Source: Acidimicrobiales bacterium
GTDB lineage: Bacteria > Actinomycetota > Acidimicrobiia > Acidimicrobiales > Bog-793
DNA length: 64,000 bases
NCBI GenBank assembly: GCA_050013835.1
Contig: JBEKEM010000003.1
Location: 9,710 to 73,709, forward strand
Direction: 5' to 3'
Numbering within the stretch: position 1 is the first letter of the stretch; each line of letters begins with the position of its first letter. The notes under the pieces were generated by a model. That model searched no databases. It was given only the letters and a program-made list of their open reading frames with translations, and was not told where the DNA came from. A program made the translations under genes and the position numbers. Of this stretch, positions 8,877 to 46,819 are shown piece by piece.

Positions 8877-9203
8877 TCCCGACAACGCACCGATCGTCAC
8901 GACCGCGCCGGTCACGGCCCGCCCCGGGTGTCCCGTCGGCCAGCCCGGGGCGGTGGGCGATGACCTCGGCACGCCTTCCCGGACTGGGGCTCGCCGCCAG
9001 CGGGTCGGAAATGGACGGGTTTGACCTGCGGTTACGGATCACGGCGCAAGACCGCGCGTGCGGCGTGGAGTCGCGAATCTGGCAACCGTTATCTCTTCAT
9101 GACCGCGCGCAGATCATCGAAGGCGCGGCCGAGTCACACTGACCCACTACCAACGCTGGAACGACGAGACCGGCCCGCTAGCGTTCGAGCCGAGAGAGAT
9201 CCG

Positions 9204-11594: not shown

Positions 11595-11672
11595 GCACGA
11601 AGGACCGATGCGGATGCGACTTGGGCGAGGCAGTGCGCCTGCGGCGGCGGGACGGCGCCCGACGGTGGCATC

Positions 11673-19211: not shown

Positions 19212-20560
19212 GAGCGCTCGACCCCGGTGAAGAGCACCCCCACCCGCTCGGCGCGCCGGACGGTGCCCGACTCGACGAGCTGTGCCAGTCCGGCGAGCCC
19301 GGCCGAGCCCGTGGCGCTGACCGGGAATCCCGCCTCCCGACCGAGTTCGTGGGCCCACACGAGCCGCTCCTCCCCGACGACGACCGGCTCCCCGTGCGTC
19401 GCGAGCATCCCGCGCACGACGGCGAGCCAGTCGTAGGTCTCGTCGTCGAGGATCCCCTCGGCGACGCTTCTGGGCTCGGCTTCCCAGGGCCACATGTAGG
19501 CCGACCGCCGCCCGGCGGCGGCACGGACCGCCCGGTCGGTGGCTCCCGCGTCCGTCTCGCCCGCCAGGTCCTTGTGCACCTGGCGGAACGCCCGCTCCAA
19601 CGGGTGGGCCCCGGCCGTCTGCACCGTGTGGACCCGCGGGATCCTCCCGAGTTTCCCCAGGGCACGTGCCTCGGTGAACGCCTGCACGCAGCTGCTGGCG
19701 AGCGCGCCGCCGCCCACCTGGACAACGACGTGGTCGAGCCCCCGCCCGTCCGATGCGAGCTGCGAGACGAGCTCGTAGCCGAGCGTCTCGCCCCCCTCGA
19801 TCGCCAGGCCGTTGAGGTTCCCCTGGCAGGTGAAGCCGACGGCGCCCTCGTCGAGCTCGGCGAGCAAGCGGAGATACGTCGGATCCCCCGGCTCGCCGGG
19901 GTTCCGCGCGCAGGCGACGATGTCGGCGTCGAGCTCGCCGAGGCGGTTGACGACGTGGGCGTCGGCGTCGACCGGCACGAAGACCCGCAGCCGCCGGCCG
20001 GCCGCGGCCGCGACGACCGCGGCGGCGAGCGCGGCGTTCCCGCAGCTGGCGACGGCGAGCGTCGGGTGCCGGTCGGACGGGACGAGGCCGAGCATCTCCG
20101 CCACCTCGAGGTGCAGCGCCACGCCCATCAGGTGGCGCGCCTTGTGCGACCCGGCCACGTTCCCGGTCTCGTCCTTCACCCACACGCCCCCCGGCTCGAC
20201 GAAGCCGAGGGCACGCGACACGACGTCGCTCCGCCCGAAGGGAGTCACCGTGAAACCGTGGCCGTCGACCCGGGTGACCGCTGCGTCGAGGCGTCGCACG
20301 AGAGCGACGAAGTCCCCGTCGCTCACCCCTCCCGCGCGGGCACGGTGGTAGCTATGGAGGAGCCCCCGGTAGCCGACGAACGGGCACGGGTCGTCCGCCT
20401 CCGCCTCCGGGAATCGCACCCGGTCGGTCGCCAGCACCCGGGTGAGGACGTGGTCGACGTCGCCCTCGGCGTGGTTCGGGCAACGGAAGGGGTATGGGTC
20501 CCGCTCCCCCGGCGAGGCGCCGCAGCCGGCGCAGGAAAGCGTGCTCGCGGGCGCGCTCAA
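19208..20560 (-). CDS. PLP-dependent enzyme, fold type II (threonine-synthase-like) with Cys-rich N-terminus
   Basis: Lys motif '[11 protein letters not shown]', '[15 protein letters not shown]', '[10 protein letters not shown]'. The N-terminus reads 'LSCAGCG...FRCPNH'. TTG at 20560 overlaps the upstream stop (TTGA). Confidence 0.7.
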
Positions 20561-22053
20561 GAGACGGCGACCCCGGTGCGACCGTTGAAGGCGCGGATGA
20601 GCTCGTCCCAGCGCGTCAGCTCGGTCCGCAGTTCCCGCCACCAGGACTGGGCCCGCCGGGCGTTGAACTCGTCGATTCCGACCCCCTGCTGCTCCACCCA
20701 CGTGAAGTAACCGAGGTTGAAGATGCGCTGCCGGTCGACGGCCGTCGTCTCCAGGAGGTGGTCGGTCCCGGCGCCGAGCATGAAGCGGCCGAACGCCTCG
20801 GCGGCGGAGCGCTCATCGAAGCCCGAGGCGAAATCCCGCGCGACGATCCGCTGCCGCTCGCTTCCGTACATCTCGGCGCCGTCGGTGGCGACCGTCATCA
20901 CGACGTCGTCGGGACCGAGTCCCAGGTACTTGGCGGTCTTCACGGCGGCGAGGACGTTGCAGATGCTCGAGAGGCCGAACTCGTCGAGAGTCGCGAGCAC
21001 CTCGGGCGGCACCTGGCGCCGCCGGGCGAGGTACGCCCTGCCTTCCGCCGAGCCGAAGACCACCGCGAGGTGGTCGGTCGCGCGGTCGGAGACCGCCGTC
21101 ACGATGTCGGTGTTGTACACGTTGTGGATGAACGGGATGTGCTTGTCGCCGATCCCCTGGATGTTGTGCTCGCCGAACCCGTTGTAGAGCATCGTCGGAC
21201 ACTCGAGCGCCTCGACGGCGACGATGCGCGCCCCCCGCGTCTCTTTCAGGTAGTCCCCCGCTCCCAGCGTCCCCGCCGAGCCCGAGGCGGAGACGAAGGC
21301 GGCGAGCCGCAGCGAGGGTTCGGTGGCCAGCATCTCGTCGAAGACGGCGCCGAGCGCGGACCCGGTGCACCGGTAGTGGACCAGGTGGTTCCCGAACTCG
21401 GCGAACTGGTTGAAGATGACGTTCGCCCGGTCACGCGACAGCTCGGCGCATCGGTCGTAGATCTCCTTCACGTTGCTCTCGGTGCCGGGTGTCGCGATCA
21501 CGTCCGCCGGATCGGCGACCCAGTCCTCGAGCCAGGCGAAACGCTCCCGGCTCATCCCCTCCGGCAGCACGGCGACGCCGCGACAGCTCATGAGCCGTGA
21601 GATCGCCACCCCGCCGCGGCAGTAGTTTCCCGTGGAGGGCCACACCGCCCGGTTCGCCGTCGGGTCGAACTGCCCGGTGACGACCCGTGGCACAAGGCAG
21701 CCATACGCGGCGAGCACCTTGTGGGCGCGGATCATCGGGAAGCGGTCGCCGAACGCCACGACGATGCGGGCGTCGACGCCGGTGAGCTCGCTCGGCAGCA
21801 CCACGTGACCCGGCACGGTCACCTGCGACGTGCGACCGGCGTCGTTGTACCAGTGGACGCGGAACAGGTTGAGGGGACTGGCCTCGTCCGGCGCCACCGC
21901 CCCGAGCGCCCGGCGGATGGGAGCGGGGATGAGGATCGGCTCGGCCAGCTCGGCGAAGGTCGGCAACAGAATCTGGCGTTCCCGGAAGCGCTCGACGGTG
22001 CGGCCGTACACCGCCTCGTCGACGATGTCATCTTCGCGTCCCAAGGTCCGCAC
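20557..22053 (-). CDS. PLP-dependent enzyme, fold type II (cysteine-synthase/TrpB-like), about 498 aa
   Basis: '[14 protein letters not shown]' (candidate PLP lysine), '[13 protein letters not shown]', '[12 protein letters not shown]'. GTG at 22053 lies 6 nt after GGAGGA. Confidence 0.7.
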
Positions 22054-22288
22054 CTGCACTCCTCCGTCTCTATTGGATCGCGACGGCCCCATCGTCGCTG
22101 CCAGCCGGACTTGAGGTCCCCGAGCCTCCTTCGACTGCTCCGCTCATCTGTCTTGTCCGACGACTTCGGCCGGGCGTCGCGCCCGACCGAGGACCCGCCC
22201 GGCGACGGCGACCCGTCCCGGGCACCACCCGCTCGCGCACCCTAGTGACCACGTGGCCCCGGCGGCGCGAATCTCGTTCCAGACAGAC

Positions 22289-22327: not shown

Positions 22328-23821
22328 CTAGAAGGACTGCTTGGCGACCTCCCTCGGGACCGAACGGAACGACAGCACGAAGTAGACGACCGCGCTGACG
22401 ATCAGCCCGAAGGCCCAGCTGAAGTCGGCACCGTGGGTCCAGTTCGACAACGGCGAGGAGTACGAGGGCGTGTAGAAGGCCGCGTCGATCCACATCATCG
22501 CCGCGAACATTCCAGCTGCCAGCGATACCAACGCCTTCCAGTTGAAGCCGCCGTCACGCCAGTACAAACCACCGTGTTTGGCGGCCAACGACTTGAACTC
22601 GTAGCGGCCGCGCCGGAGCCAGTAGTCGACGATGTAGACGCCGAACCACGCACCGAGCCAGACGACGATGTAGTCGAGGAACCCGGCAAGGTCCGTGTAG
22701 AAGTTCCCCTTGAAGATCACGAGGGCCGTCACGCCACCGGAGATGATGGTGTCGATGACGACGCAGACCCACCGCTTGGCCGGAAGGCCGAGCGCCTGGA
22801 GGGTGACCCCCGAGGAGTACATGTCGAGCGTGTTGATCGCGAACAGCTGCGGCAGCGCCAGGATCAAGAACGGCCAGAAGAACCAGCTGGCGAACGACGT
22901 CGGAAGAGCGGCCGCGGCACCGGGGCCGTAGATGTTGCTCTGGAGTGACGTGCTGACGAGGTAGGCGCAGGCACCGAGGAGCTCGAGCAGGATCGACGGG
23001 ATGGCCCCGCCAAGCGTCGCGGCCCAGAACGTCTTCGCCGTGGGGGTGTCAGCCGGCAGGTAGCGGGAGTAGTCCGCCGCGTTCTCGGTCCAGCCGAGAC
23101 CCCCTGCCGAGACGACGAGCACGAGCCCGGTGGTCCACAGCCACCACGAGTCCGTGCCGTGCGCGTGCAGGTCGGACAGGTGGACGTGGGGAAGGACGAG
23201 GCACGCCATGATGGCGAAGACCACGACGAACACGTAGGACAGGTAGTGCAGGACCTTCGTGATCGTCGCGTGCCCGAGGAACGGCACGACGAACTGGATG
23301 AGGACGGCGATGATGATCGCGATCGTCTTGCCGGTGTCGTTGAGGTGGATCCCCTCGTGGCTGAACATCGCCACGACGACCAAGACCGCGATCACAAGGC
23401 CTTCGACCTCGAAGCCGACCTGGGTGATCCAGTTGAACAACGACGGCGCGCGGTTGCCGTTCCGGCCGAAGGCCGCGCGGCTCACCATGAACGTCGTCGT
23501 CCCCGACCTCGGCCCGGCAAGGCTCGCCGCGCCGAGGAAGACGTAGACGATGTTCCCGAGGAGGATCGCCAAGACGGCCTGCCAGAACGTCAGCCCGAAG
23601 GCGACGATCAGGGCGCCGTAGACGAGGAACTCGACGTTCCAGATCCCGCCGGCCCACATCCAGAACAGGCCCCCAGGGCGCAGCCGCCGGTCGGCATCCG
23701 CGACGTGCTCGATACCCCGCTGCTCGAGTTTGAAGGCGCTATACCCCTCAGCGGCCTCGTCGCCGGACATCGACGACCCGCCTCCCGGCGGGCCGGAGCC
23801 CATGTCCACACCGTTGGCCAT
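22328..23821 (-). CDS. NCS1 family (cytosine/purine/uracil/allantoin/hydantoin) permease
   Basis: A 497-aa polytopic membrane protein with 'FKLEQRGIEHV...RLRPGGLFWMWAGG' at the N-terminus. ATG at 23821 is preceded by GGAGGGAGG. Confidence 0.85.
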   Translation of the reverse strand: MANGVDMGSGPPGGGSSMSGDEAAEGYSAFKLEQRGIEHVADADRRLRPGGLFWMWAGGIWNVEFLVYGALIVAFGLTFWQAVLAILLGNIVYVFLGAASLAGPRSGTTTFMVSRAAFGRNGNRAPSLFNWITQVGFEVEGLVIAVLVVVAMFSHEGIHLNDTGKTIAIIIAVLIQFVVPFLGHATITKVLHYLSYVFVVVFAIMACLVLPHVHLSDLHAHGTDSWWLWTTGLVLVVSAGGLGWTENAADYSRYLPADTPTAKTFWAATLGGAIPSILLELLGACAYLVSTSLQSNIYGPGAAAALPTSFASWFFWPFLILALPQLFAINTLDMYSSGVTLQALGLPAKRWVCVVIDTIISGGVTALVIFKGNFYTDLAGFLDYIVVWLGAWFGVYIVDYWLRRGRYEFKSLAAKHGGLYWRDGGFNWKALVSLAAGMFAAMMWIDAAFYTPSYSSPLSNWTHGADFSWAFGLIVSAVVYFVLSFRSVPREVAKQSF

Positions 23822-24157
23822 CGTCGGACCTCCCTCCGTGCGCCTCGGAAAGGTCGGTCGGCCCTCGTCGTGCGCACTATCTAGTCGTACGACAGAACGT
23901 GTTGCAGGCAACCCCGTGAAACCTCCGGCACTGTATCCCTTGGACGCCGTTCCGTCGCTGTTGAATTTGTCGTCTTCTTGTTCCCCTGCGCGGCGTCCCG
24001 CCGTCACGGGCCGCCCTGCGACCCTCCCCAGGCGGCAGGGCGACCGGCCGGGGCGTGGGCCGGCGATGCCCGCCGCACCGGCGGGCGGGGCTGGGTGGGC
24101 GGTCTCGTCTTGACCGGAGACGAGCTGGCCGACCGGTCCCAACGGCCTGGTCGGGTG

Positions 24158-25480
24158 ATGTCGGGGACGGCGATACTACGGGGCGTGGAACAGCGGACGG
24201 TCCTGCGCGGCGTCGCCTCGCCCGGCGACATCGCCGTCGAGCAAGGACACGTCGCCACGATCGGCACGGTCGACGCCCGGCCCGGCGACCGCGTGCTGCG
24301 CTGTGACGGTGCCCTCGTCACGGCCGGGCTCGTCAACTGCCACCACCACCTCTACCAGTGGCTGACCCGGGGCCGGGCGACTGCCTGCGACCTGTTCACA
24401 TGGCTCACGACCCTCTACCCCGTCTGGGGGCGGATCTCGGCCGAGGACACGGCGGTGGCGGCTCTCGTCGGGCTGGGCGAGCTCGCCCTGGGCGGGGCGA
24501 CGACGGTGTCGGACCACCACTACGTCGTGCCCCGTGGCGACGACACCGTCTTCGACGCCATCGCCGCCGCGGCGGGCACCGTCGGAGTCCGGCTGCAGCT
24601 CTGCCGGGGCTCGATGGACCTCGGAGAGAGCGCCGGGGGGCTCCCGCCCGACTCCGTCGTGGAGTCGATCGACGCCATCCTCGCCTCGACCGAGTCCGTC
24701 GCCGCCCGCCTGCACGACGGCGACCGCGTGATGGTCTCCGTCGCGCCGTGCAGCCCGTTCTCGGTGACGACCGACCTTTTGCGCGAGTCCGCCGCCCTCG
24801 CCCGCCGACTGGGACTGCGCCTGCACACCCACCTCGCCGAGACCGAGGACGAGGCGCGCCACTGCCAGGCGCGCTTCGGACTGCGGCCGCTCGAGTTGAT
24901 GGAGGAGCTCGGGTGGCTCGGCGACGACGTCTGGTTCGCCCACGCCGTCCACCTCGAGCCGGCTGAGGTCGCCGCCCTCGGGGACGCCCGCGCCGGCGTG
25001 GCCCACTGCCCGAGCTCGAACGCGCGGCTCGCCGCCGGCCTCTGCCCGGTACGGGGCCTCCTCGACGCCGGCGCGGCCGTCGGCCTCGGCGTCGACGGCC
25101 CGGCCTCCAACGAGCTGGGCGTGCTGCTGCCGGAACTGCGCCAGGCGCTCAACCTGGCGCGGCTGCGAGAGGGACGGGCCGACGCCCTGTCGCCGGCCGA
25201 GGCGCTGGCGCTCGCCACCTCGGGGGGCGCGGCCTGCCTCGGGCGTGCCGATCTCGGCCGGCTCGAGGTGGGGGCGGTGGCCGACCTCGCCGTCTGGCCG
25301 CTCGCCGACCTGGCCGACATCCCCGACCCGGTCGACGGGCTCGTGCTCGGCCCCGACCGGCGCGTGCGCCACCTTCTCGTCGGGGGCCGCGAGGTGGTGG
25401 TCGACGGGAACCTCGTGGGCGTCGACCTCACGGCCGCGCACGGCGAACTGGCGCGGCGCTCCCGCGAGCTGTGGCGGTGA
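24158..25480 (+). CDS. 8-oxoguanine/guanine-deaminase-like amidohydrolase (COG0402 type)
   Basis: 'GLVNCHHHLYQ', 'HTHLAETEDE', 'FAHAVHL', 'AHCPSSNARL', 'GVDGPASNE'. Confidence 0.8.
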   Translation: MSGTAILRGVEQRTVLRGVASPGDIAVEQGHVATIGTVDARPGDRVLRCDGALVTAGLVNCHHHLYQWLTRGRATACDLFTWLTTLYPVWGRISAEDTAVAALVGLGELALGGATTVSDHHYVVPRGDDTVFDAIAAAAGTVGVRLQLCRGSMDLGESAGGLPPDSVVESIDAILASTESVAARLHDGDRVMVSVAPCSPFSVTTDLLRESAALARRLGLRLHTHLAETEDEARHCQARFGLRPLELMEELGWLGDDVWFAHAVHLEPAEVAALGDARAGVAHCPSSNARLAAGLCPVRGLLDAGAAVGLGVDGPASNELGVLLPELRQALNLARLREGRADALSPAEALALATSGGAACLGRADLGRLEVGAVADLAVWPLADLADIPDPVDGLVLGPDRRVRHLLVGGREVVVDGNLVGVDLTAAHGELARRSRELWR

Positions 25481-25490
25481 GGGCCACACC

Positions 25491-26897
25491 GTGCTGATCC
25501 GCGGCGGCACCGTCATCGACGAGACGGGCGAGCGTCCGGCCGACCTCCGGGTCGGTGACGACGGCCGGGTGACCGAGGTGGCGCCGGGGCTCGCCCCCCG
25601 CCCGGGCGAGGACGTGCACGACGCGGCCGGCAGGCTCGTCGTGCCCGGCGGCGTCGACCCCCACACGCACATGGCGCTCCCGGTCGGGGCGGTGCGCGTC
25701 TCGGACGATTTCGCCACCGGGACGAGGGCGGCGGCGATCGGCGGCACGACGACGATCATCGACTACATCACGCCCGAACGCGGCGAGGACCCGATGCACG
25801 CCGCGGCGAGATGGCGCAGACTCGCGGAGCCCGCGTCGATCGACTGGGGCCTGCACCTCAGCTTCACCGCTGTCGTCCCCGAGGCGGTCGTCGCCGGGGC
25901 GGTCGCGGAAGGCATCACCTCGTTCAAGCTCTACCTCGCCTACCCCGACCGCCTGCAGGTCGACGACGGCACGGTCGTCGCGCTGATGCGCTCGGCCCGG
26001 CGCCAGGGGGCGCTCGTCACCCTCCACTGCGAGAACGGCGCGGCGATCGAAGAACTCCGGCGCGAGGCGCTGGCGGAAGGTCGCACGGCGGTCATCGAGC
26101 ACGCCCGCACGCGACCGCCCCTCCTCGAAGCGGAGGCGACGGCGCGCGCCGCGGTCCTCGCCGAGCTGACCGGCGCCGCCATCTACGTCGTACACGTCTC
26201 CTGCGGCGACGCCCTCGCCGAGATCCGCGCCGCCCGGGAGCGGGGGGTCCGGGTCCAGGCGGAGACCTGCCCGCAGTACCTCTACCTCGACGAGACCAGG
26301 CTCGGGGGCCCCGACGCGGCGGACTTCGTCTGCACGCCCCCGTTGCGCCCGGCGGGAGAAGCCGACCGCCTGTGGGAGGGCCTCGCCCGGGGGTGGATCC
26401 AGACCGTCGGCACCGACCACTGCCCGTTCCGGCGCGCCGACCGCCGCGCCGGGGTCACCGGGCTGCCGGGAGGCGCGCGCGATTTCACGGAGATCCCCGG
26501 CGGCCTCCCGGGCGTCGAGACGCGGCTCGCCCTCATCTGGCAGGGGGTGCGCGACGGCCGGATCAGCGCCGCCGACTGGGTGCGGATCTGCGCCACGGCG
26601 CCGGCGCAGGCCTTCGGGCTCTGGCCGGTGAAGGGCTCGCTCGGAGTCGGCGCCGACGCCGACGTGGTGGTCTGGGACCCCGAGCGACGCCAACCGCTCG
26701 GCGCCGCCGACCTCGACATGGCGGTCGACCACTCCCCCTACGAGGGCATGGTCGCCACCGGCTGGCCCGAGCTGGTGCTGAGCCGCGGCCGGCCGGTCGC
26801 CCGCGACGGGCGCTTCGTCGGCGAGGCCGGCTGGGGCCGCTACCTGGCCCGTTCGACGCTCGCGCCCGGGGGGGACCCTCCGACGGGGAGACGTTAG
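25491..26897 (+). CDS. D-hydantoinase / dihydropyrimidinase
   Basis: 'PGGVDPHTHM', 'GTRAAAIGGTTTIIDY', 'SFKLYLAY' (carboxylated-Lys context), 'VVHVS', 'TDHCPF'. GTG at 25491. Confidence 0.85.
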   Translation: MLIRGGTVIDETGERPADLRVGDDGRVTEVAPGLAPRPGEDVHDAAGRLVVPGGVDPHTHMALPVGAVRVSDDFATGTRAAAIGGTTTIIDYITPERGEDPMHAAARWRRLAEPASIDWGLHLSFTAVVPEAVVAGAVAEGITSFKLYLAYPDRLQVDDGTVVALMRSARRQGALVTLHCENGAAIEELRREALAEGRTAVIEHARTRPPLLEAEATARAAVLAELTGAAIYVVHVSCGDALAEIRAARERGVRVQAETCPQYLYLDETRLGGPDAADFVCTPPLRPAGEADRLWEGLARGWIQTVGTDHCPFRRADRRAGVTGLPGGARDFTEIPGGLPGVETRLALIWQGVRDGRISAADWVRICATAPAQAFGLWPVKGSLGVGADADVVVWDPERRQPLGAADLDMAVDHSPYEGMVATGWPELVLSRGRPVARDGRFVGEAGWGRYLARSTLAPGGDPPTGRR

Positions 26898-26934: not shown

Positions 26935-27672
26935 ATGGAGAGCACTGCTCGGTACTCGCGCCCGCAGTCGTTAAGGGAGGCGCTCTCGCTGCTCGAGAGC
27001 CCTTCGGCGGCGGTGATCGGTGGGGGGACGAGGTTCCGCGCGCGCGACGGCTCGGCGTCCGTCGAGGTGGTCGACCTGCAGGCGCTCGGCCTCGACACGA
27101 TCTCTCGACGTGGTGACGGCACCCTCACGATCGGCGCCGTGACGAGACTGCAGCAGCTCGCCGACTGCGACGAGGCCCCCCCGGTGGTGCGCGAGGCGGC
27201 GCGCCGAGAGGCACCGAGCACGCTGCGGGCGCAGGCGAGCATCGGCGGGTGCGTCGCCACGGCGGCCTGGGACAGCGAGCTTCTGGCGGCGCTCCTCGCC
27301 TACGGGGCACGCGTGGAGCTCGCCAGCGAAAAGGGCACGACGGAGGTCACGCTCGAAGCGCTCCTTGCCCGGCTTCCGCTGGCGAGTGGCGAGGTCATCA
27401 CCGCCGTCTCGCTCGACACCCGCGGTTCGGCTGCGGTCGCGCGCACGGCGCGCACGCCCTCCGACCGCCCGATCGTCGCCGCCGTCGCCCGCCGCCTCGA
27501 CGGGGTGTGGCGGCTCGCGCTCACCGGGGTCGCGGCGACACCGGTGCTCGTCGAGCCGGGGGCGACGGACCGGCTCGCTCCCCCCGGCGACTTCCGGGGT
27601 TCGAGCGAGTACCGGCGCGCCCTCGCCGCCGTGCTGAGCGCGCGGGCCCTCGCGGCGGTGGAGGAGTCGTGA
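26935..27672 (+). CDS. short FAD-binding molybdopterin-dehydrogenase subunit (YgfM-like)
   Basis: 'AAVIGGGTRF', 'ASIGGCVATAAWDSEL'. 245 aa. It sits directly upstream of the XdhD-like gene. Confidence 0.7.
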   Translation: MESTARYSRPQSLREALSLLESPSAAVIGGGTRFRARDGSASVEVVDLQALGLDTISRRGDGTLTIGAVTRLQQLADCDEAPPVVREAARREAPSTLRAQASIGGCVATAAWDSELLAALLAYGARVELASEKGTTEVTLEALLARLPLASGEVITAVSLDTRGSAAVARTARTPSDRPIVAAVARRLDGVWRLALTGVAATPVLVEPGATDRLAPPGDFRGSSEYRRALAAVLSARALAAVEES

Positions 27673-27755: not shown

Positions 27756-30692
27756 GTGGTCCGTCTCTCGGTCAACGGCACGCCCCACGCCGTCGCCTGC
27801 GGGACCCACACGACGCTTCTTGCCGTGCTGCGCGGGCTCGGGTTCTTCAGCGTGCGGTTCGGCTCCGCCACGGGCGAGACCGGCGCGGCGGCCGTCCTTT
27901 TCGACGGCCGCCTAGTCTCGGCCGACGTGCTGCTCGCGGCCCAGGCCGCCGGCCACGAGATCACGACGGTCGAGGCGCTCAACGTCGCCACCGGCGAGTT
28001 CCACCCGATCCAGGAGGCCTTTGTCGAGGCCGGCGCGATGCAGTCGGGGTACTCGGCGGGGGCGATGGTGCTCGCCACGAAAGCGCTCCTCGAGGCGAAC
28101 CCCGACCCCACCGAGGCCGAGATCCGCGACGCCCTGAGCGGGATCCTCGACCGGGAGACCGGCTACGCGAAAGTCGTCGCGGCGGTGCAACGCGCCGCGG
28201 CGATGCTACGCGGCGAGAAGTACCCGCCGATGGACCCGGTCCTCGTCGACCCGCTCGCCGGGCAGGTGGGATCCCCGCCCGCGCCGGTGCCGGCAACCGA
28301 CGGCGACGTCTCGATGGCGGTGCCGCGCCTCGTCGCCTCGCCCGACGTCCCGCAGACATGCGTCGTCGGCAAGCCGGAGACGAAAGTCGACGCGCTGAAG
28401 CTCGTGAAGGGCAACCCGGCCTTCACCGACGACATCGAACCGCGGGGGGTGCTGTTCGCCAAGGTGCTGCGCAGCCCGCACGCCCACGCCCGCATCGTCG
28501 AGATCGACGACTCGGCGGCTCGCGCGCTGGCCGGTGTCCACGCCGTCCTCCACTGCCGGAACACGGCGCGCGTGAAGTACGCCTCGGGCGGCCAGAGCTG
28601 GCCGAACCCGCCACCGTGGGACCAGGTGAGCTTCGACGACAAGGTCCGCCACGTCGGCGACCGGGTCGCCGCCGTGGCGGCGGAATCGGTCGAGATCGCC
28701 GAGGAGGCCTGCCGGTTGATCAAGGTGACGTACGAGGTCCTCCCCGCCGTGTTCGACGAGATCGAGGCGATCGGGCCGGGGGCGCCGGTCATCCACGACG
28801 AGCCGGACACGGAGGGGATCTTCGACGCCAGCCGCAACATCAGCCACCACATCGAGGGTCAGACGGTCTCCGACGACCAGCTCGCCGCCGCCTTCGCCGC
28901 CGCCGACCGGGTCTTCGAGGAGACCTTCCACGTCCAGCAGGTCCAGCACACGCCCATCGAGCCGCACATCACGATCGGGTGGCTCGACGAGGACGAACGG
29001 CTGGTGCTGCGCTCCTCCACCCAGGTCCCGTTCCACGTCCGCCGGATGGTGGCGCCCCTCCTGGGACTGCCCGTCAAGCGCATCCGCGTCGTCAAGCCCC
29101 GCCTCGGCGGCGGCTTCGGGGCGAAACAGGAGATGGTGATCGAGGACATCGTCGGCCATCTCGTGCTCGCGACGCGCCGCCCGGTCCGTCTCGAGCTCAC
29201 CCGGGCCGAGGAGTTCGCCTCGACCCGCGTCCGCCACGCCCAGACGATCACGCTGCGCTCCGGCGTCGACGCCGAGGGCCGGCTCGTGGCGCAGGACATG
29301 CGGGTGGTCGCCAACACCGGCGCCTACGGCACGCACGGCTTCACGGTGAACTCGGTCTGCGGCCAGCACGGCCTTTCGCTCTACAACTGCCCGGCCAAGC
29401 GCTTCCGCTGCGACGTCGCCTACACGAACCGCCCGGTGGCGGGTGCTTTCCGCGGCTACGGCGCCCCCCAGGCGTTCTTCGCCCTCGAGTCCCACATGGA
29501 CGGCATCGCCCGGGCACTCGGTCTGGACCCCTACGAGATCCGCCGGCGCAACTGGGTGCGGACCGGCGACCCGCTCGACATCGTGCTGCAGCTCGGCGAG
29601 CGGGGCGGCGTCGAGGACATCGCCCCCGAGGACATGCCCGTCGTCACGAGCTGCGGCCTCGAGGAGTGCGCCCTGCAGGCCCGGCGCGCCATCGGCTGGG
29701 AGAGGCGGGGCGACCCCGCCTGGCATCGCCCGGCCGATCGGCCGAACATCCGCCGGGGCCTGGGGCTCGCGCTCGCCATCCAGGGCTCGGGGATCCCGCT
29801 CGTCGACATGGCGGCGTGCTCGATCAAGATCAACGACGACGGCTCGTTCAACATGCTCCTAGGCGCGACCGACCTCGGCACCGGCTCGGACACGGTCCTC
29901 GCCCAGATCGCCGCCGAGGTGCTCGGCGTGCCGGTCGAGGACATCCTCGTCTACTCGTCCGACACCGACTTCACGCCGTTCGACGTCGGCGCCTACGCCT
30001 CGAGCACGACCTACGTCTCGGGGGGCGCGGTGAAAAAGGCCGCCGAGGCGGCCCGGTCGCGCATCGTCGCCCGGGCGGCCCGCATGCTTTTAGTCGACGA
30101 CCCCGGGACGATCGAGCTCCACGACCGGCGGGCCTGGGCGGCCGACGGGCGCTCGGTCGCGATGGGCGACATCGCCCTCAACGCCCTGCACACTGAGGAC
30201 CAGGAACAGATCATGGGCACCGCCTCGCACGTCTCGCCCGAATCCCCGCCGCCCTTCGCGGCGCAGGCGGCCGAGGTCGAGGTGGACACTGAGACGGGCC
30301 AGGTGACCGTCACCAAGCTCGTCACCGCCGTCGACTGCGGCGTGCCCATCAACCCGGTCACGGCGAGCGGCCAGGTCGAGGGGGCGATGCTGCAGGCCCT
30401 CGGCTACGCCCTCTGCGAGGAGGTCGTCCTCGACGGCGAAGGGCGCCCGCTCAACGACCGGTTCGGGCCCTACTGGATCTTCCGCGCCGACGACACCCCG
30501 CCGATGGAGGTCTACCTCGTGCAGACGATGGAGCCCTCCGGCCCCTTCGGGGCCAAGGCGGTGGCGGAGATCCCGATGGACGACGTCGCGCCGGCGGTGC
30601 GCAACGCCATCCTCGACGCGACCGGCGTCGCCATCAACACGATCCCGTTCACCCCCGAGCGCGTCTGGCGGGCCCTGCAGCAGGCGAGGTGA
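27756..30692 (+). CDS. xdhD: XdhD-like molybdopterin hydroxylase: Cys-less ferredoxin-like N-domain fused to a Moco-binding large subunit
   Basis: The N-domain aligns to the small subunit but lacks the Cys ligands (see finding). The Moco part has 'VRHVGDRVAAVAAES', 'GGGFGAKQE', 'GAFRGYGAPQ', 'FGAKAVAEI'. I chose the in-frame GTG at 27756 after GGAGAG; the GTG at 27669 (GTGA overlap) is an alternative. Confidence 0.85.
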   Translation: MVRLSVNGTPHAVACGTHTTLLAVLRGLGFFSVRFGSATGETGAAAVLFDGRLVSADVLLAAQAAGHEITTVEALNVATGEFHPIQEAFVEAGAMQSGYSAGAMVLATKALLEANPDPTEAEIRDALSGILDRETGYAKVVAAVQRAAAMLRGEKYPPMDPVLVDPLAGQVGSPPAPVPATDGDVSMAVPRLVASPDVPQTCVVGKPETKVDALKLVKGNPAFTDDIEPRGVLFAKVLRSPHAHARIVEIDDSAARALAGVHAVLHCRNTARVKYASGGQSWPNPPPWDQVSFDDKVRHVGDRVAAVAAESVEIAEEACRLIKVTYEVLPAVFDEIEAIGPGAPVIHDEPDTEGIFDASRNISHHIEGQTVSDDQLAAAFAAADRVFEETFHVQQVQHTPIEPHITIGWLDEDERLVLRSSTQVPFHVRRMVAPLLGLPVKRIRVVKPRLGGGFGAKQEMVIEDIVGHLVLATRRPVRLELTRAEEFASTRVRHAQTITLRSGVDAEGRLVAQDMRVVANTGAYGTHGFTVNSVCGQHGLSLYNCPAKRFRCDVAYTNRPVAGAFRGYGAPQAFFALESHMDGIARALGLDPYEIRRRNWVRTGDPLDIVLQLGERGGVEDIAPEDMPVVTSCGLEECALQARRAIGWERRGDPAWHRPADRPNIRRGLGLALAIQGSGIPLVDMAACSIKINDDGSFNMLLGATDLGTGSDTVLAQIAAEVLGVPVEDILVYSSDTDFTPFDVGAYASSTTYVSGGAVKKAAEAARSRIVARAARMLLVDDPGTIELHDRRAWAADGRSVAMGDIALNALHTEDQEQIMGTASHVSPESPPPFAAQAAEVEVDTETGQVTVTKLVTAVDCGVPINPVTASGQVEGAMLQALGYALCEEVVLDGEGRPLNDRFGPYWIFRADDTPPMEVYLVQTMEPSGPFGAKAVAEIPMDDVAPAVRNAILDATGVAINTIPFTPERVWRALQQAR

Positions 30693-30792: not shown

Positions 30793-33402
30793 TTGGTGAC
30801 GCCGGACGGCTCCGACGGGCCCGGGGGGATTTCGTTCGTCCTGAACGGCAGCCCCGTCGAGGTGCGCAACGACCATCCCCACCTCCTCGCGGCGCTGCGC
30901 GAGGAGCTCGGCGTCACCTCGCCCAAGGACGGCTGCTCGCCGAGCGGGCAGTGCGGCTGCTGCACGGTGCTCGTCGACGACAAGGCCGTCGTCGCCTGCC
31001 AGGTCGCCCTTTCGCGGGCCCGGGGCCGTTCGGTCGTCACCCTCGAGGGGTTCGACCCGGCCGAGCGCCAGCGCTTCGCGGCGGCCTTCGTCGCCGCAGG
31101 CGCCCTGCAGTGCGGCTTCTGCACCCCGGGGATCGTCGTCCGCCTGAAGGCGCTCCTCGACAAGAAAGGCTCCGGCCTCACCCGCGCCGAGGCCGCCCGG
31201 CACCTCGGGGCCCACCTGTGCCGGTGCACCGGGTACGCCAAGATCCTCGACGCCGCGGAGCTCCTCGCCGCCGGCTCGCCGCCGGCGATCCTGCCCTCCG
31301 GCGGCATCGGCGCCCGCGCCGCGCGCTATGACGGCGAGCGCCAGGCGCTCGGCGACGGCGGCTTCGTCGACGACCTCCGCCTGCCCGGGATGCTGCACGG
31401 CGCCCTCCGGCTGGCCGACCACGCCCGCGCCGAGGTCGTGCGGATCGACACCGCAGCCGCCCGCACGCTCCCGGGGGTCACGGCCGTGCTGACCGCCGGC
31501 GACGTGCCCGGCGAGTTGCGCGTCGGCATCTCCAGCGCCGACTGGCCGGTCTTCATCCCCGTGGGGGGCCGGACCTCGTACCTCGGCGACGTCCTCGCGA
31601 TGGTCGTCGCCGACACGCGCCAGACCGCCCGGCGGGCGGCCGCCCTCGTCGAGGTGGGCTACCGCCCGCTGCGCCCCCTCACCGACCCCGTGGCGGCGCT
31701 GGCGGACCCGGAGGACGCCGCCTGGCAGCTGCCGGGCAACGAGCTCGCGCGCTGCGGCTACCGCCGGGGCGACGTCGACGCCGCCCTCGCCGCCTCGGCG
31801 CACACCGTCCACGAGGTCTTTGCGACCCAGCGGGTCGAGCACGCCTTCCTCGAACCGGAGTCCACCCTCGCCGTGCCGGGCGACGACGGCCGCCTCCACG
31901 TCTACTCCGGGGGCCAGGGCGTCTGGGACGACCGGCGCCAGATCGCCTCGGTGCTCGCCCTGCCCGAGGAGGCCGTGCTCGTCGAGCAGGTCTCGAACGG
32001 CGGCGCCTTCGGGGGCAAGGAGGACATGTCGAACCAGGCCCAGACGGCGCTCGCCGCCTGGCTGCTGGGACGCCCCGTGAAGTGCACGCTCTCCCGGACG
32101 GAGTCCCTGCTCCTGCACCCCAAGCGCCACCCGTTCCGGCTCGAGTACTCGGCCGGATGCGACGCCGCCGGCCGGCTCACGGCGCTACGGGCCCGTCTGA
32201 TGAGCGACACCGGGCCCTACGCCTCGGTCGGGAGCCACGTGCTGGAGCGCGCCGCCGGGCACGCCTCGGGGCCCTACGTCGTGCCCGCGATCGACGTCGA
32301 GGCCGTCGCCGTGCGCACGAACAATCCCGTCGCCGGCGCCTTCCGCGGCTTCGGCGCCAACCAGGCCCAGTTCGCGATGGAGGGGGTGATCGACCGCCTC
32401 GCCGAAAAGGTCGGGCTGAGCGGCTGGGAGATGCGCAGGCGCAACGTCGTCGCGCCGGGTGCGGTCTGGGGCCCCGGACAGGTGATGGACGCCGGGAGCC
32501 GGGGTGCGCTCGCCTGCCTCGAACAGGTGAAACCCGCCCTCGACGAGGCCGTCGCCGTCGGCAAGGCGGTCGGACTCGGGCTGGGGTTGAAAAACGCCGG
32601 CCTCGGCAACGGCGCCGTCGAGGTGGCCCGGGCCGTCGTCCGGTTCGACGAGGCCGGCGGCGTCGAGGTGCGCCACTGCTGGACCGAGATGGGCCAGGGG
32701 ATCCACACGGTCGCCCGCCAGGTCGCCGTCGAGGAGCTCGCCATCCCGGCCGAACGGATCCGGGTCGTCGTCGACACCTCCCGCGAGCTCGGCGCCGGCC
32801 AGACGACCGGCTCGCGCGGCACGTTGATGGGCGCCGGCGCCGTCGCCGACGCCTGCCGGCGGGCCAACGAGGACGGACGCCGCCCGAACGTCGACTACGT
32901 GGGCGAGCACCGCGTCGACTGGACCAACTCGCTCGCCGAGGGGCTCCCCCACCCGACGGTGCATGCCGCCTTCTCCTTCGCCGCCCAGCTCGTCGTGATC
33001 GACCGCGCGACCGGCCGGATCGAGAGCGTGCTCGCCGTCCACGACGTCGGGCGGGCGGTCAACCCGATGCTGTGCGAGGGTCAGATCCAGGGCTCCGTGC
33101 ACATGGGGCTCGGCTACGCCCTCTCGGAGGACTTCCCCGCCGACGAAGAGGGCCGGCCCCGCAACATGACCCTGCGGAGTCTCGGGATCCTGCGGGCCAA
33201 GGACGTGCCCCCGGTCCGGGTCGTCCTCGTCGAGGAGCCCCAGCCGCGCTCCCCCTACGGCATCAAGGGGATCGGCGAGATCGGCCTCGTGCCGACGGCC
33301 GGCGCCGTGGCGGCGGCGCTGCACGACCTCGACGGGACCTGGCGGGCGTCGCTGCCGATGTCCGGGCCGGCGGCGGGGACCGTCGACACCTCCGACGACT
33401 GA
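30793..33402 (+). CDS. aldehyde-oxidoreductase (Mop)-type molybdoenzyme: 2x[2Fe-2S] domain fused to a Moco domain, no FAD subunit
   Basis: 'GCSPSGQCGCCTV...AC', 'QCGFCTPG' and 'CRCTGY' come first. The Moco part follows with 'GGAFGGKED', 'GAFRGFGANQ', 'GIKGIGEIG'. Confidence 0.85.
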   Translation: MVTPDGSDGPGGISFVLNGSPVEVRNDHPHLLAALREELGVTSPKDGCSPSGQCGCCTVLVDDKAVVACQVALSRARGRSVVTLEGFDPAERQRFAAAFVAAGALQCGFCTPGIVVRLKALLDKKGSGLTRAEAARHLGAHLCRCTGYAKILDAAELLAAGSPPAILPSGGIGARAARYDGERQALGDGGFVDDLRLPGMLHGALRLADHARAEVVRIDTAAARTLPGVTAVLTAGDVPGELRVGISSADWPVFIPVGGRTSYLGDVLAMVVADTRQTARRAAALVEVGYRPLRPLTDPVAALADPEDAAWQLPGNELARCGYRRGDVDAALAASAHTVHEVFATQRVEHAFLEPESTLAVPGDDGRLHVYSGGQGVWDDRRQIASVLALPEEAVLVEQVSNGGAFGGKEDMSNQAQTALAAWLLGRPVKCTLSRTESLLLHPKRHPFRLEYSAGCDAAGRLTALRARLMSDTGPYASVGSHVLERAAGHASGPYVVPAIDVEAVAVRTNNPVAGAFRGFGANQAQFAMEGVIDRLAEKVGLSGWEMRRRNVVAPGAVWGPGQVMDAGSRGALACLEQVKPALDEAVAVGKAVGLGLGLKNAGLGNGAVEVARAVVRFDEAGGVEVRHCWTEMGQGIHTVARQVAVEELAIPAERIRVVVDTSRELGAGQTTGSRGTLMGAGAVADACRRANEDGRRPNVDYVGEHRVDWTNSLAEGLPHPTVHAAFSFAAQLVVIDRATGRIESVLAVHDVGRAVNPMLCEGQIQGSVHMGLGYALSEDFPADEEGRPRNMTLRSLGILRAKDVPPVRVVLVEEPQPRSPYGIKGIGEIGLVPTAGAVAAALHDLDGTWRASLPMSGPAAGTVDTSDD

Positions 33403-33417: not shown

Positions 33418-35139
33418 TCAGCCGACGGCGACGTCGACGAGCGAGAAGGCGGTGACGTCGAACAGTCCCCGGTCGGTCATCCGCAGCTCCGGGATCACCG
33501 TGAGGCCGAGGAACGACAGCTGCATGAACGGCGCCTCGATCGTCAGCCCGAGCCGGGTCGAGACGACGTCGGCGAGCTCGTGCACCTCGCCGGCGACCTC
33601 GCGGGCGTCCTTGTCGCTCATCAGGCCGCCGATCGGCAACCGCACCTCGCCGATCACGTGCCCGTCGAGCATGGCGACCTGCCCGCCGCCGATCTCGACG
33701 AGGCGCGCCACGGCGGCCGCCATCTCGGCAGGACCGCTCGCGTCCCGGGCGCCCACCACCATGCAGTTGTGGGCGTCGTGCGCCACGGTCGAGGCGATCG
33801 CCCCCCGCTCGAGCCCGAAGCCGGCGACGTAGCCGAGGCCGATCCTCCCGGTGTGGTTGTGGCGCTCGACGGCGCCGATCCGCGCCACGTCCTGGGTCGC
33901 GTCCGCCACGTCGACGATCAAGGCCCGCGTCGAGAGCGAGCGCGACTCGATGCCGATCACCCGGGCCTTGCCGGAGGGAGCGGGGAACTCGAAGACGGCC
34001 GGCCCCGGGAGCTCGTCGAGGTGCACGGAGTGGAACATCCACTCGGGGGCCGGGGCGTTCGGCACCACGCCGGGCACGATCTGGCCGTCGACCGCCACGA
34101 GCCGGCCGGCCTGCCAGACGCGAGTCGGCTCGAAGGTCGAAAGCTCGTCGAAGCAGCAAACATCCGCCTGGTAGCCGGGGGCGAGCCAGCCGAGGCGGTC
34201 GAACCGGTGGTAGTCGGCAGGATTCGCCGTTGCCAGCACGAGCGCCTCCTCGACCGGCAGGCCGGCGGCGACCGCCAGGCGCACGCAGTCGTTGATGTGC
34301 CCGTCGTGCACCAGGGTGTCGGGTTCGCGGTCGTCGGTGCAGAGGGCGACGCGGTCGGTGCCATGGGCGAGGACCGAGGGGATGAGGTCGGCGAGGTTGC
34401 GCGAGGCGGAGCCTTCCCGGATGAAGATCCACATCCCCTTGCGGCGCTTCTCGTCGGCCTCGTCGACGTCGGTGCACTCGTGGTCGGATTCCACGCCGGC
34501 GGCGAGGTAGGCGTCGAGCGAGGGCCCGCGGACCCCCGGGGCGTGCCCGTCGACCCGCCGCCGGCCCGCCGCCGCGATCTTGGCGAGCACCTCGGCATCG
34601 CCCCGGATCACGCCCGGGAAGTCCATCATCTCGGCGATCCCGATCGCCCCGTGGCGGTCGAGGAGCTCGACGAGCTTGGCGTGGTCGAGAACGCTCGCCG
34701 GGCTCTCGAAAGGCGACGCCGGCACACAGCTCGAAGCGCAGATCCCGAAGGTGAAAGGCAGGTCCCTCGCCGCCTCCGCCAGGGCGACGACGCCCGCGAC
34801 CCCGAAGACGTTGGCGATCTCGTGCGGGTCCGCGGCGACGGCGGTCGTCCCGTGCGGCAGCACCGTGCGCACGAACTCGTCCACCCACAGCTTCGTGGAC
34901 TCGAGGTGCATGTGCGGGTCGATGAAGCCCGCCGTGAGCGACGCCCCGGCGACGTCGACCACCTGGACGGCGTCTCGGGAACCCCAGCCGGCGATCACAC
35001 CGTCGGCGATGGCGAGGTCGGTCACGACCCACTCCCGGGTGCCCGGGACGAACACCCGGCCCCCCTTGATGAGGAGATCGGCGGGCTCGTCCCCGCGCGC
35101 CACGGCGAGCACCCGCGTCGTGCCCCTGCGCTGCAGCAT
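33418..35139 (-). CDS. ade: adenine deaminase
   Basis: 'GFIDPHMHLES', 'GTTAVAADPHEIANV', 'IAEMMDFPGV', 'VDGHAPG', 'ESDHECT'. I chose the ATG at 35139; the ATG at 35181 is an alternative. Confidence 0.85.
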   Translation of the reverse strand: MLQRRGTTRVLAVARGDEPADLLIKGGRVFVPGTREWVVTDLAIADGVIAGWGSRDAVQVVDVAGASLTAGFIDPHMHLESTKLWVDEFVRTVLPHGTTAVAADPHEIANVFGVAGVVALAEAARDLPFTFGICASSCVPASPFESPASVLDHAKLVELLDRHGAIGIAEMMDFPGVIRGDAEVLAKIAAAGRRRVDGHAPGVRGPSLDAYLAAGVESDHECTDVDEADEKRRKGMWIFIREGSASRNLADLIPSVLAHGTDRVALCTDDREPDTLVHDGHINDCVRLAVAAGLPVEEALVLATANPADYHRFDRLGWLAPGYQADVCCFDELSTFEPTRVWQAGRLVAVDGQIVPGVVPNAPAPEWMFHSVHLDELPGPAVFEFPAPSGKARVIGIESRSLSTRALIVDVADATQDVARIGAVERHNHTGRIGLGYVAGFGLERGAIASTVAHDAHNCMVVGARDASGPAEMAAAVARLVEIGGGQVAMLDGHVIGEVRLPIGGLMSDKDAREVAGEVHELADVVSTRLGLTIEAPFMQLSFLGLTVIPELRMTDRGLFDVTAFSLVDVAVG

Positions 35140-35279
35140 TGCAACGACTCTAGGCCCGGCCCGCCAGGAATCGGCCGACATCTGCGACGTCCGCCCGGTG
35201 CTCCCCGGCTGACCAGGGCAAGGCCCCGGCGCCCGCTCTGTACGCTCGCCGCAAGGGGCGCGGCGAGGGGAGGCTTGGC

Positions 35280-35927
35280 GTGGCACGCAGCCGGACGGGA
35301 CACGACGCCGAGCGCGCCGTCGCCGGCGTCGTGCTCGCGGCCGGCGAGGGATGGCACTTCGGCGGTCCGAAGGCCCTCGTCCGTTTCGCCGGCGAGATGC
35401 TCGTCGAGCGCTCGATCCGGACCCTCGCCCAAGGCGGCTGCCGACCGGTGTGCGTGGTGCTCGGCGCCGCCGCGGCCGAGGTGCAGGCGGCGTGCGATCT
35501 CGCCGACGCCGTCGTGGTCGTCAACGGGGCCTGGCCCGACGGCATGGGCGGGTCCTTACGGGTCGGGCTCGAGTCGGCGCGGCAAGCGGGGGCGGGAGCC
35601 GCCCTCGTCGCCCTCGTCGACCAGCCCCTCGTCACGCCCGCCCTCGTCGCCCGCCTGATCGCCGCCTGGCGGGGCGGCGCCCGCGCCCCCGTCGCCGCCT
35701 GGCGGGGCGAGGGCCTGACCCCGGCGCTCCTCGACCGCTCGCTGTGGGAGGTGGTCGCCCTGCACGCCGTGGGCGACGTGGGGGCCCGGGCGGTGCTGCG
35801 CGCCCAGCCCGAGCTCGTCACGCTCGTCGACTGCGACGACGTGGGGGCGCCCGACGACATCGACACCCCGGCGGACCTGCGCCGGCTGGAAGGCGGCCGG
35901 CCGCAGTCTCCCGCGCCGCCGCCCTAA
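35280..35927 (+). CDS. mocA: MobA/MocA-like nucleotidyltransferase (molybdenum cofactor cytidylyltransferase candidate)
   Basis: 'GVVLAAGEG..FGGPKAL', 'GMGGSLRVGL', 'ALVDQPLV'. Confidence 0.75.
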   Translation: MARSRTGHDAERAVAGVVLAAGEGWHFGGPKALVRFAGEMLVERSIRTLAQGGCRPVCVVLGAAAAEVQAACDLADAVVVVNGAWPDGMGGSLRVGLESARQAGAGAALVALVDQPLVTPALVARLIAAWRGGARAPVAAWRGEGLTPALLDRSLWEVVALHAVGDVGARAVLRAQPELVTLVDCDDVGAPDDIDTPADLRRLEGGRPQSPAPPP

Positions 35928-45292: not shown

Positions 45293-45303
45293 GGGTTGGG
45301 GTA

Positions 45304-46817: not shown

Positions 46818-46819
46818 CC

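Follow-up and report, generated by a model that had tools for sequence, protein, structure and literature searches.

An XdhD-like molybdoenzyme subunit from an Acidimicrobiales bacterium with no cysteine at any of the eight [2Fe-2S] ligand positions

In the textbook order of the xanthine oxidase family, electrons move between molybdenum (Mo), iron-sulfur (Fe-S) cluster I, Fe-S cluster II, and flavin adenine dinucleotide (FAD), and in structures of xanthine dehydrogenase (XDH) these centers are arranged approximately linearly, about 15 Å (Mo to Fe-S I), 12 Å (Fe-S I to Fe-S II), and 8 Å (Fe-S II to flavin) apart. Here we describe a gene of this family, 27756..30692, whose product has no cysteine ligand for either cluster. 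It lies in a 64,000-nucleotide stretch of contig JBEKEM010000003.1 (assembly GCA_050013835.1, positions 9,710 to 73,709) from an Acidimicrobiales bacterium, and we call this whole stretch the window. The best-described related system is the XdhD-YgfM pair of Escherichia coli, which co-purifies and converts urate and reduced nicotinamide adenine dinucleotide (NADH) to 2,8-dioxopurine ("yanthine"), i.e., the reaction that opens the reductive uricolysis pathway; conversion was measured at end point with 10 µM enzyme, without kinetics (Li et al. 2025, PMC12507026). In the same work, XdhD was modelled as XDH-like, its residue E606 was proposed to orient urate, an E. coli ΔxdhA strain did not consume xanthine despite the presence of XdhD, and a Chloroflexota variant of the pathway was described in which a luciferase-family F420 enzyme stands in place of YgfK (PMC12507026). 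In Clostridium sporogenes, the same reaction is carried out by an enzyme with Fe-S clusters and the molybdenum cofactor (Moco) named "XdhAC" (PMC12990295).

Other described relatives resemble the window protein in part. The aldehyde oxidoreductase (AOR) of Desulfovibrio gigas (MOP, PDB 1sij/1vlb) joins an Fe-S module and Moco in a single chain and is the best whole-chain fold match in the PDB to the AF2 (AlphaFold2) model of the window protein (1sij, TMq 0.70), but it is 26% identical, carries two [2Fe-2S] clusters, and lacks a FAD subunit. By sequence, the nearest Moco subunit of solved structure (E 2.5e-102) is that of 4-hydroxybenzoyl-CoA reductase (HCR) from Thauera aromatica (PDB 1rm6), a reductive dehydroxylase that runs the family chemistry in the reductive, dehydroxylating direction; with two [2Fe-2S] clusters and an extra [4Fe-4S] cluster in its FAD subunit, however, HCR has more electron wire than the window protein. 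Canonical XDH (PucCDE/XdhABC), encoded in the window at 9021..13000, belongs to the same family, has broadly the same three cofactor modules, and likewise acts on a purine, but differs in having separate subunits, eight cysteines (Cys), and no LGEG insertion. The PDB search did not find a solved XdhD structure.

The N-terminal domain of the window protein (N-domain, the first 150 residues) aligns end to end with solved 2x[2Fe-2S] subunits, and its eight ligand columns read S,T,A,D,S,S,D,E. Two alignments were made, one with MAFFT against the window small subunit 12542..13000, the N-domain of the adjacent paralogue 30793..33402, and E. coli XdhC, and the other with HMMER against the solved Fe-S subunits 4zoh_C, 8uem_C, 3hrd_D, and 5y6q_A; they agree on the register and on the residues at all eight columns. 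A preliminary description of the window, made from the sequence alone, had claimed that the fold signature is kept while every ligand is substituted, and both the alignments and the motifs quoted there, all of which were found, bear this out. It was likewise right that one Cys remains in the domain ("AVACGTH"), this being C15, the sole Cys within aa 1-160 and at a non-ligand position, and that both paralogues, 12542..13000 and 30793..33402, have all eight Cys. A comparison with Pfam profiles, proposed in the same description, gave a Fer2_2 match for the window protein (aa 71-145, 71.4 bits, cut-off 30.3) and no Fer2 match, whereas both paralogues match Fer2 and Fer2_2. The rest of the protein matches PF01315 (a/b hammerhead, 90 bits) and the Moco-binding families PF02738 (261 bits) and PF20256 (248 bits). 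When the N-domain was searched against 1.84 billion representative proteins and the 150 best matches were evaluated, 101 of the 150 had Cys at all eight columns, and the ligand loss is for this reason not a matter of chance. The N-domain is unable to bind its clusters via the canonical ligands. With ligands absent from all eight columns, the canonical route from Moco through [2Fe-2S] to FAD is not available to this protein, as the preliminary description had concluded, and the domain itself is best read from its sequence as a homologue of the 2x[2Fe-2S] module that would lack both clusters.

The former cluster sites do not offer an obvious substitute. The replacement residues vary between lineages (STADSSDE, DTDQSNDE, DADSSNSD, DVDGSNNA, and DADNSNID), and therefore no alternative ligand set is conserved; conserved alternative ligands and an aromatic hopping chain were both rejected as candidates, as the replacements are lineage-variable and a conserved Trp/Tyr series is not visible. 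The AF2 model (predicted template modelling score 0.81, mean predicted local distance difference test [pLDDT] 74.6) preserves the beta-grasp and four helices, with N-domain strands at aa 2-6, 9-13, and 46-55 and helices at aa 21-27, 56-64, 84-92, 101-114, 120-126, and 137-151. Its pLDDT is below 50 at aa 32-44, the former cluster loop. There are two options for the start of the gene, namely, GTG 27756, with GGAGAG 9 nt upstream, and the in-frame GTG 27669 (29 aa more), which forms a GTGA overlap with the TGA stop of the ygfM-like gene (27669-27672), has GGAGGAG just upstream, and might be translationally coupled. Which of the two is used is ambiguous, and the N-domain would be translated from either. 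An exact look-up of the full-length protein in public assemblies gave no record.

On the relation to E. coli XdhD, the preliminary description needs a qualification: by the NCBIfam threshold, the two proteins are not orthologues. The best NCBIfam match of the window protein is TIGR03313 (XdhD family), but at 692.7 bits it falls below the equivalog cut-off of 1101.9 (E. coli XdhD scores 2122.8), and in our trees the protein is sister to 8-Cys proteins. The guess made there about E. coli XdhD turned out to be correct, in that the E. coli protein has the same fused layout of Fe-S-like N-domain and Moco domains and its N-domain contains zero Cys, the eight columns reading D,A,D,S,S,N,S,D in strain K-12. 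The two systems further share a FAD gene directly upstream, the LGEG/E606 motif, the catalytic glutamate (E938 in the window protein, conserved across the clade), and a cluster with SsnA, hydantoinase, YgeW-type carbamoyltransferase, and carbamate kinase. They differ in that the proteins are 37% identical with different replacements at 7 of the 8 positions, the window clade sits with 8-Cys proteins, and the window has an F420-type LLM oxidoreductase and no YgfK. The absence of the Cys ligands is at odds with the electron-transfer scheme proposed for the E. coli enzyme. The missing ligands are unmentioned in PMC12507026, in the commentary PMC12990295, and in the searchable literature naming XdhD or "ygfN", although subscription reviews may already note them, and RefSeq labels E. 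coli XdhD as "molybdopterin-binding subunit and Fe-S binding subunit". We would like to note that the E. coli sequence fact has been visible since the K-12 genome was published and that the protein family and the pathway were already known. What appears to be unrecognized in the searchable literature is a xanthine-oxidase-family enzyme without Fe-S ligands, together with convergent losses, graded intermediates, and variants that also lack a FAD gene.

Loss of the ligands is not restricted to the window protein. Of the 150 best matches to the N-domain, 22 have Cys at no aligned ligand column (several of these are fragments spanning only some of the columns) and 5 more have a single Cys, while the plant-type site alone is lost in 9 (e.g., DSDG-CCCC) and the helical-domain site alone in 2 (CCCC-SSDE and CCCC-SESE). 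The 101 eight-Cys matches include fused proteins of 920-980 aa. Two metagenomic fragments, P0136 and P0134, keep all four plant-type Cys with a window-type Cys-less helical site (SSDE and SESE), and P0136 looks mosaic, with a first half of CoxS type and a second half that almost matches the window type. Scanning the genomes of GTDB species yielded 80 loci, in each of which the eight columns were read; the resulting patterns are included in Table 1. At one window-type locus, L015, the open reading frame is cut by a frame break and six of the eight columns are readable. The nearest genome relative of the window gene, at 76%, is in a metagenome-assembled genome (MAG) of the Acidimicrobiaceae.

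A neighbor-joining (NJ) tree of the Moco region (744 columns, 100 bootstraps) recovered an XdhD-like superclade with 100% bootstrap, with E. coli XdhA outside it. Within the superclade, an E. coli-type group (100%) has the 8-Cys members L050, L054, and L060 interleaved, and the window clade (100%) lies, with 98% support, within a set made up of 8-Cys proteins (P0143, L018, L021, and L024-L029), the half-lost L022/L025, and the DTDQSNDE type. In a smaller tree, the window clade grouped with the 8-Cys protein P0143 with 99% bootstrap and with E. coli XdhD with 0.3%; pairwise identities point the same way, the window protein being 53% identical to P0143 and 37% to E. coli XdhD. The trees are distance-based (NJ only) and E. 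coli XdhD is on a long branch, with a long-branch artefact as a caveat. Read with that caveat, they imply that the loss in the window clade is convergent and not inherited from a common XdhD ancestor. Because regaining eight cysteines is implausible, they further imply that complete ligand loss occurred at least three independent times, i.e., in Actinomycetota/Chloroflexota, in Anaerolineae, and in Enterobacterales/Spirochaetota. A single ancestral loss in common with E. coli XdhD was considered and rejected, both the tree and the differing replacement residues speaking against it.

The 8-Cys fused sisters (P0143 and the Anaerolineae/Chloroflexota loci L018, L021, L024, and L026-L029) are 50-59% identical to the window protein over the full length and share its domain order, LGEG motif, and catalytic glutamate. 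Nevertheless, they retain the full set of eight Cys and resemble AOR-type enzymes fed by ferredoxin; in those nearest the window clade, the fetched flanks (2.9-10 kb of upstream sequence in six) contained no FAD-subunit gene. The LGEG insertion, which carries E606 in E. coli, is common to superclade members with zero, four, and eight Cys except the P0166/P0188/P0194 branch, and is absent from that branch, from XdhA/PucD-type enzymes, and from the window's other two paralogues. With LGEG and the catalytic glutamate conserved, isofunctional-looking proteins therefore exist both with and without the Fe-S wire.

The Cys-less N-domain is well conserved. Of the 120 best homologues in the database (72-91% identity, full-length), 119 have it, the named sources being Nocardioides, Intrasporangium, Ornithinibacter, Streptosporangiaceae, Acidimicrobiales, and Gaiellaceae, and the residues S,T,A,D,S,S,D,E are nearly invariant across the 119. 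Mean identity among these homologues is 73% in the N-domain versus 76-84% in the other domains. Across GTDB species, the ratio of N-domain to Moco-domain divergence is 1.32 in the 0-Cys clade versus 1.34 in the 8-Cys sisters; selection on the N-domain was not relaxed after the ligands were lost.

Table 1. Features of the window around the Cys-less subunit and, in the last four rows, ligand patterns at related loci.
Feature	Position or loci	Strand	Remarks
Canonical three-subunit xanthine dehydrogenase	9021..13000	+	PucD-type large 9021..11594, FAD 11673..12545, 2x[2Fe-2S] 12542..13000 (eight Cys)
Carbamate kinase	13914..14864	-	381 bits
Two carbamoyltransferases	14876..15853 and 15882..16832	-	
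F420-dependent LLM-class (luciferase-like) oxidoreductase	16864..17910	-	Stands in the place of YgfK/UacX
SsnA-like aminohydrolase	17850..19250	-	400 bits vs cut-off 444
Two PALP enzymes	19208..22092	-	
Purine/cytosine-type permease	22328..24142	-	
8-oxoguanine-deaminase-like amidohydrolase	23978..25480	+	NF006055 529 bits, cut-off 532
D-hydantoinase/dihydropyrimidinase	~25488..26897	+	TIGR02033 473 bits, cut-off 393; E. coli HyuA 43% identical
YgfM-like FAD-binding subunit, 245 aa	26935..27672	+	FAD_binding_5 93.8 bits; GGGT and SIGG flavin motifs intact
XdhD-like fused molybdoenzyme subunit, 978 aa	27756..30692	+	Cys-less Fe-S-like N-domain, a/b hammerhead, two Moco-binding domains
N-terminal domain, aa 1-150	27756..28205	+	Beta-grasp then four helices; homologous to 2x[2Fe-2S] module; no ligand Cys
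Former plant-type [2Fe-2S] ligand positions	27864..27926	+	S37 (27864), T42 (27879), A45 (27888), D57 (27924); columns of CxxxxCxxC...C
Former helical-domain [2Fe-2S] ligand positions, next to pterin	28044..28157	+	S97 (28044), S100 (28053), D132 (28149), E134 (28155); columns of QCGxC and CRC
LGERG motif with E615	29592..29606	+	Counterpart of E. coli XdhD E606
E938, active-site glutamate of xanthine-oxidase family	30567..30569	+	Motif GAKAVAEIP; aligns with GEPP/SEIG glutamate of E. coli XdhA and XdhD
Adjacent paralogue, Fe-S and Moco fused	30793..33402	+	No FAD domain; eight Cys; TIGR03311 801 bits, cut-off 830
Adenine deaminase	33418..35286	-	
MocA-like, MoaC, MoeA, ModABC genes	Downstream of 35280	both	
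Window-type Cys-less, ST[AS][DE]S[SA][DC]E	17 loci: L003-L015, L019, L023, L038		Acidimicrobiia, Microthrix, several Chloroflexota, one Planctomycetaceae MAG
Second Cys-less pattern, DTDQSNDE	L016, L017		Anaerolineae
E. coli-type Cys-less	L057, L058, L059, L063, L066		Serratia and four Spirochaetota
Half-lost forms	L022, L025, L043, L045, L046, L061		Six loci

SsnA-like, hydantoinase, carbamoyltransferase, and carbamate kinase genes, the set by which a reductive uricolysis cluster is recognized, are co-located around 27756..30692, with a second reductase of the F420 type, and by this gene content the cluster is a reductive uricolysis cluster of the F420-for-YgfK variant, here in an Acidimicrobiia-like actinobacterium. 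No homologue of YgfK, YgeX (diaminopropionate ammonia-lyase), or YgeY (peptidase) was found in the window by tblastn (E <= 1e-5). The YgeW-like carbamoyltransferase is 32% identical to its namesake, and the PucD-type large subunit at 9021..11594 matches TIGR03196 above the cut-off (843 bits). Side by side with the carbamate kinase stand tandem carbamoyltransferases, one OTCase (ornithine carbamoyltransferase)/YgeW-like and the other above the aspartate carbamoyltransferase cut-off, and the tandem suggests that both ureido groups may be cleaved phosphorolytically. The Moco-supply genes downstream (MocA-like, MoaC, MoeA, and ModABC) are an indirect pointer to the predicted binding of Mo-pterin with a sulfido ligand. 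The adjacent paralogue 30793..33402, which falls slightly short of the cut-off for the selenium-dependent XDH model TIGR03311, could be a second, ferredoxin-fed purine or urate enzyme.

Immediately upstream of the Cys-less gene is the YgfM-like FAD subunit named in the preliminary description (26935..27672). Its best NCBIfam match is TIGR03312 (YgfM family), at 73 bits against a cut-off of 241.5, and it contains 2 Cys, neither of them conserved. Where a window-type locus has enough flank, a ygfM-like gene usually stands directly next to the Cys-less gene (13 of 16 loci); such a gene is also adjacent in the E. coli-type group, in members with and without Cys alike. YgfM-like proteins retain the GGGT and T/SIGG flavin motifs and have no alignment column with Cys in >=30% of sequences; a compensating Fe-S cluster in YgfM, in the manner of HcrB, is therefore ruled out. 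Two side observations concern individual YgfM proteins. E. coli YgfM (L001:22541-23320) has four Cys (CPC...C...C) that are not conserved in window-type YgfM-like proteins, and the YgfM-like protein at L007:9270-9929 has zero Cys and VEGA where others have GGGT, so that its FAD site may be degenerate.

The preliminary description had further proposed that a YgfK-like protein or the adjacent Mop-type enzyme might supply a separate Fe-S center, and neither proposal was supported. The window lacks a homologue of YgfK, and the surroundings of the operon contain neither a ferredoxin gene nor 4Fe-4S motifs, the sole ones in the window being >=17 kb away in Hdr-like genes. The paralogue 30793..33402 was rejected as an obligate partner, being co-located in only 4 related loci. 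A separate block at 43538-62000 on the forward strand encodes a formate-tetrahydrofolate ligase, a PALP enzyme, a DsrE-like protein, and heterodisulfide-reductase-like CCG/4Fe-4S proteins; it lies >=13 kb from the operon and is not an obvious partner.

With moderate confidence, we read the N-domain as a cofactor-free scaffold in a urate to 2,8-dioxopurine reductase whose electron delivery is non-canonical. The 2x[2Fe-2S] module is the family's structural bridge between the Moco domains and the FAD subunit, and in the window protein the N-terminal 150 residues would be a cofactor-free relic of that module, with the fold under undiminished purifying selection, that holds YgfM and packs against the Moco domains. 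The window protein would then be the Moco subunit of a urate reductase catalyzing step one of the encoded pathway, with the YgfM-like flavoprotein as its partner. We infer urate reduction with a scaffold role for the N-domain and no replacement cofactor. With both clusters gone, reducing equivalents cannot pass from FAD through Fe-S II and Fe-S I to the pterin; YgfM would still accept hydride, with a nicotinamide (or deazaflavin) as the donor, and only the final transfer to Mo would be non-canonical. For that step, FAD-dependent transfer by altered geometry or a mediator is the route to which we give most weight, at somewhat less than even confidence. Direct two-electron reduction at the Mo site is a more tentative possibility, made attractive by the forms with neither FAD nor Fe-S ligands and by the repeated losses, and the remainder of our expectation falls on other routes. 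In support of urate reduction, the gene is clustered with SsnA-like, hydantoinase, YgeW-like, and carbamate kinase genes and with an F420/luciferase-type reductase, and its closest solved Moco relative is a reductive dehydroxylase, as noted above.

Several points weigh against this reading. The flavin-pterin gap without clusters is >25 Å versus a physiological tunnelling limit of about 14 Å, and the notion that FAD still feeds Mo is therefore left without a physical path. The E. coli end-point assay, having no kinetics, gives no demonstration of efficient FAD-to-Mo transfer. The window protein is below the XdhD equivalog cut-off, and P0143, its 8-Cys sister, is at least as close to E. coli XdhD; for this reason function is transferred on gene context and the LGEG motif. 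Four loci (L010, L011, L013, and L016) have neither Cys ligands nor a FAD-subunit gene in the fetched locus, where the flanks cover 10 kb on each side for L010 and L013, and 1.6 kb and 0.2 kb upstream for L011 and L016, respectively; from these loci, FAD as the electron entry point may not be general. Finally, the urate step could in reality belong to the 8-Cys paralogue 30793..33402, in the way that C. sporogenes uses XdhAC (PMC12990295).

The alternative that survives best, although we consider it rather unlikely, holds that catalysis is wire-less: Mo would be reduced directly in the active-site funnel by a two-electron donor, the Fe-S chain would be dispensable and hence repeatedly lost, and YgfM would be unwired. 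Candidate donors are hydride carriers, reduced flavins or deazaflavins, and, in a ping-pong "transhydroxylation", a second purine. At least three complete losses together with half-losses, all inside one clade sharing the LGEG motif and the catalytic glutamate, are what such dispensability would produce, and the unrelaxed selection after loss indicates that function persisted. Additionally, all four combinations of presence and absence of Fe-S ligands and FAD gene occur (with neither in the four loci just named), and in the STADSSCE subclade (Promineifilum and an Anaerolineae MAG) a DHO_dh-family (UacX-like) gene replaces ygfM at its position directly before the Cys-less gene (L011:608-1618 and L013:8818-9954). 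Nevertheless, ygfM-like genes are tightly retained with intact flavin motifs in most Cys-less lineages, and in vitro nothing more than NADH and the complex of XdhD with YgfM was needed. The E. coli ΔxdhA strain, which did not consume xanthine despite having XdhD, speaks against this purine as the direct reductant, and the same phenotype led us to disfavor a redox-neutral xanthine to 2,8-dioxopurine isomerase (PMC12507026). We know of no precedent for wire-less catalysis in the xanthine oxidase family.

Less probable again is a division of labor in which the 8-Cys paralogue carries out the urate step and the Cys-less pair has a different purine as its substrate, or a function that is regulatory or not redox at all. 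The paralogue follows the Cys-less gene after 100 nt and is near TIGR03311 membership, the window protein scores under the XdhD cut-off, and an Fe-S and Moco enzyme does perform this reaction in C. sporogenes (PMC12990295). However, it is the Cys-less protein that has the E606/LGEG motif, which the paralogue lacks, and only 4 related loci have the paralogue alongside it. By comparison, SsnA-like, luciferase-like, or hydantoinase genes occur with the Cys-less gene in about 8 of 16 window-type loci, and YgeW-like and carbamate kinase genes in one more.

We give very little weight to a cryptic cofactor, i.e., a redox center held in the former pockets through Asp, Glu, Ser, Thr, or His, or through residues from the Moco domain or YgfM. 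The window clade has polar or acidic replacements that hardly vary (S,T,A,D / S,S,D,E), and C15, as well as C30 in most homologues, is conserved at non-ligand positions, as such a center might lead one to expect. In contrast, the replacement sets of other lineages include Ala, Gly, Ile, Asn, and Gln; position 30 of the window protein is F, not C; the E. coli XdhD domain has zero Cys; the former cluster loop has low pLDDT; and YgfM-like proteins have no conserved Cys. To our knowledge, a [2Fe-2S] cluster with all-oxygen ligation is unprecedented.

An artefact or pseudogene, in which the N-domain is untranslated owing to a downstream start or the Cys codons have gone through sequencing error or decay, as the preliminary description had allowed, is excluded on sequence grounds: the one gene call in its favor, P0006 (792 aa, 100% identical to the window protein, starting downstream at MAVPRLV, and the lone exception among the 120 homologues), comes from contig L002, a noisy near-identical metagenome copy of the locus with frameshifting indels inside the N-domain and an assembly-type 396-bp x3 tandem array of the xdhD-like 3' end (L002:12061-13260), and is a frameshift artefact, while the window reading frame is open, the same residues stand in the N-domain of 119 other homologues, eight independent codon changes cannot be read errors, and N-domain constraint equals that of the 8-Cys sisters. 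The window has a single copy of the 396-bp unit, flanked by a 12-bp direct repeat, GGTCGAGGGGGC (30374 and 30771), which could be the seed of a real duplication or of an assembly artefact.

A whole clade, E. coli XdhD included, keeps its flavoprotein and Mo site while having ligands for neither cluster, and databases still say "Fe-S binding"; annotation pipelines should cease transferring "Fe-S-binding" to these Cys-less proteins. A molybdoenzyme specialist would find such a clade surprising. It is possible, and we put it forward tentatively, that XdhD-like proteins are the first xanthine-oxidase-family enzymes without an internal electron-transfer chain, in which Mo is reduced directly or by a so-far-unknown route, with some members also lacking the flavoprotein. 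An active E. coli XdhD-YgfM preparation exists, so the question is directly testable, and the E. coli urate reductase would be the accessible example if the wire-less reading is true. Should the purified enzyme prove to be iron-free, then electrons would cross >25 Å by an unknown route, or the geometry of the complex would differ, or Mo would be directly reduced. Any such outcome would alter the understanding of the family, and it bears on the engineering of the gut urate-degrading pathway against gout.

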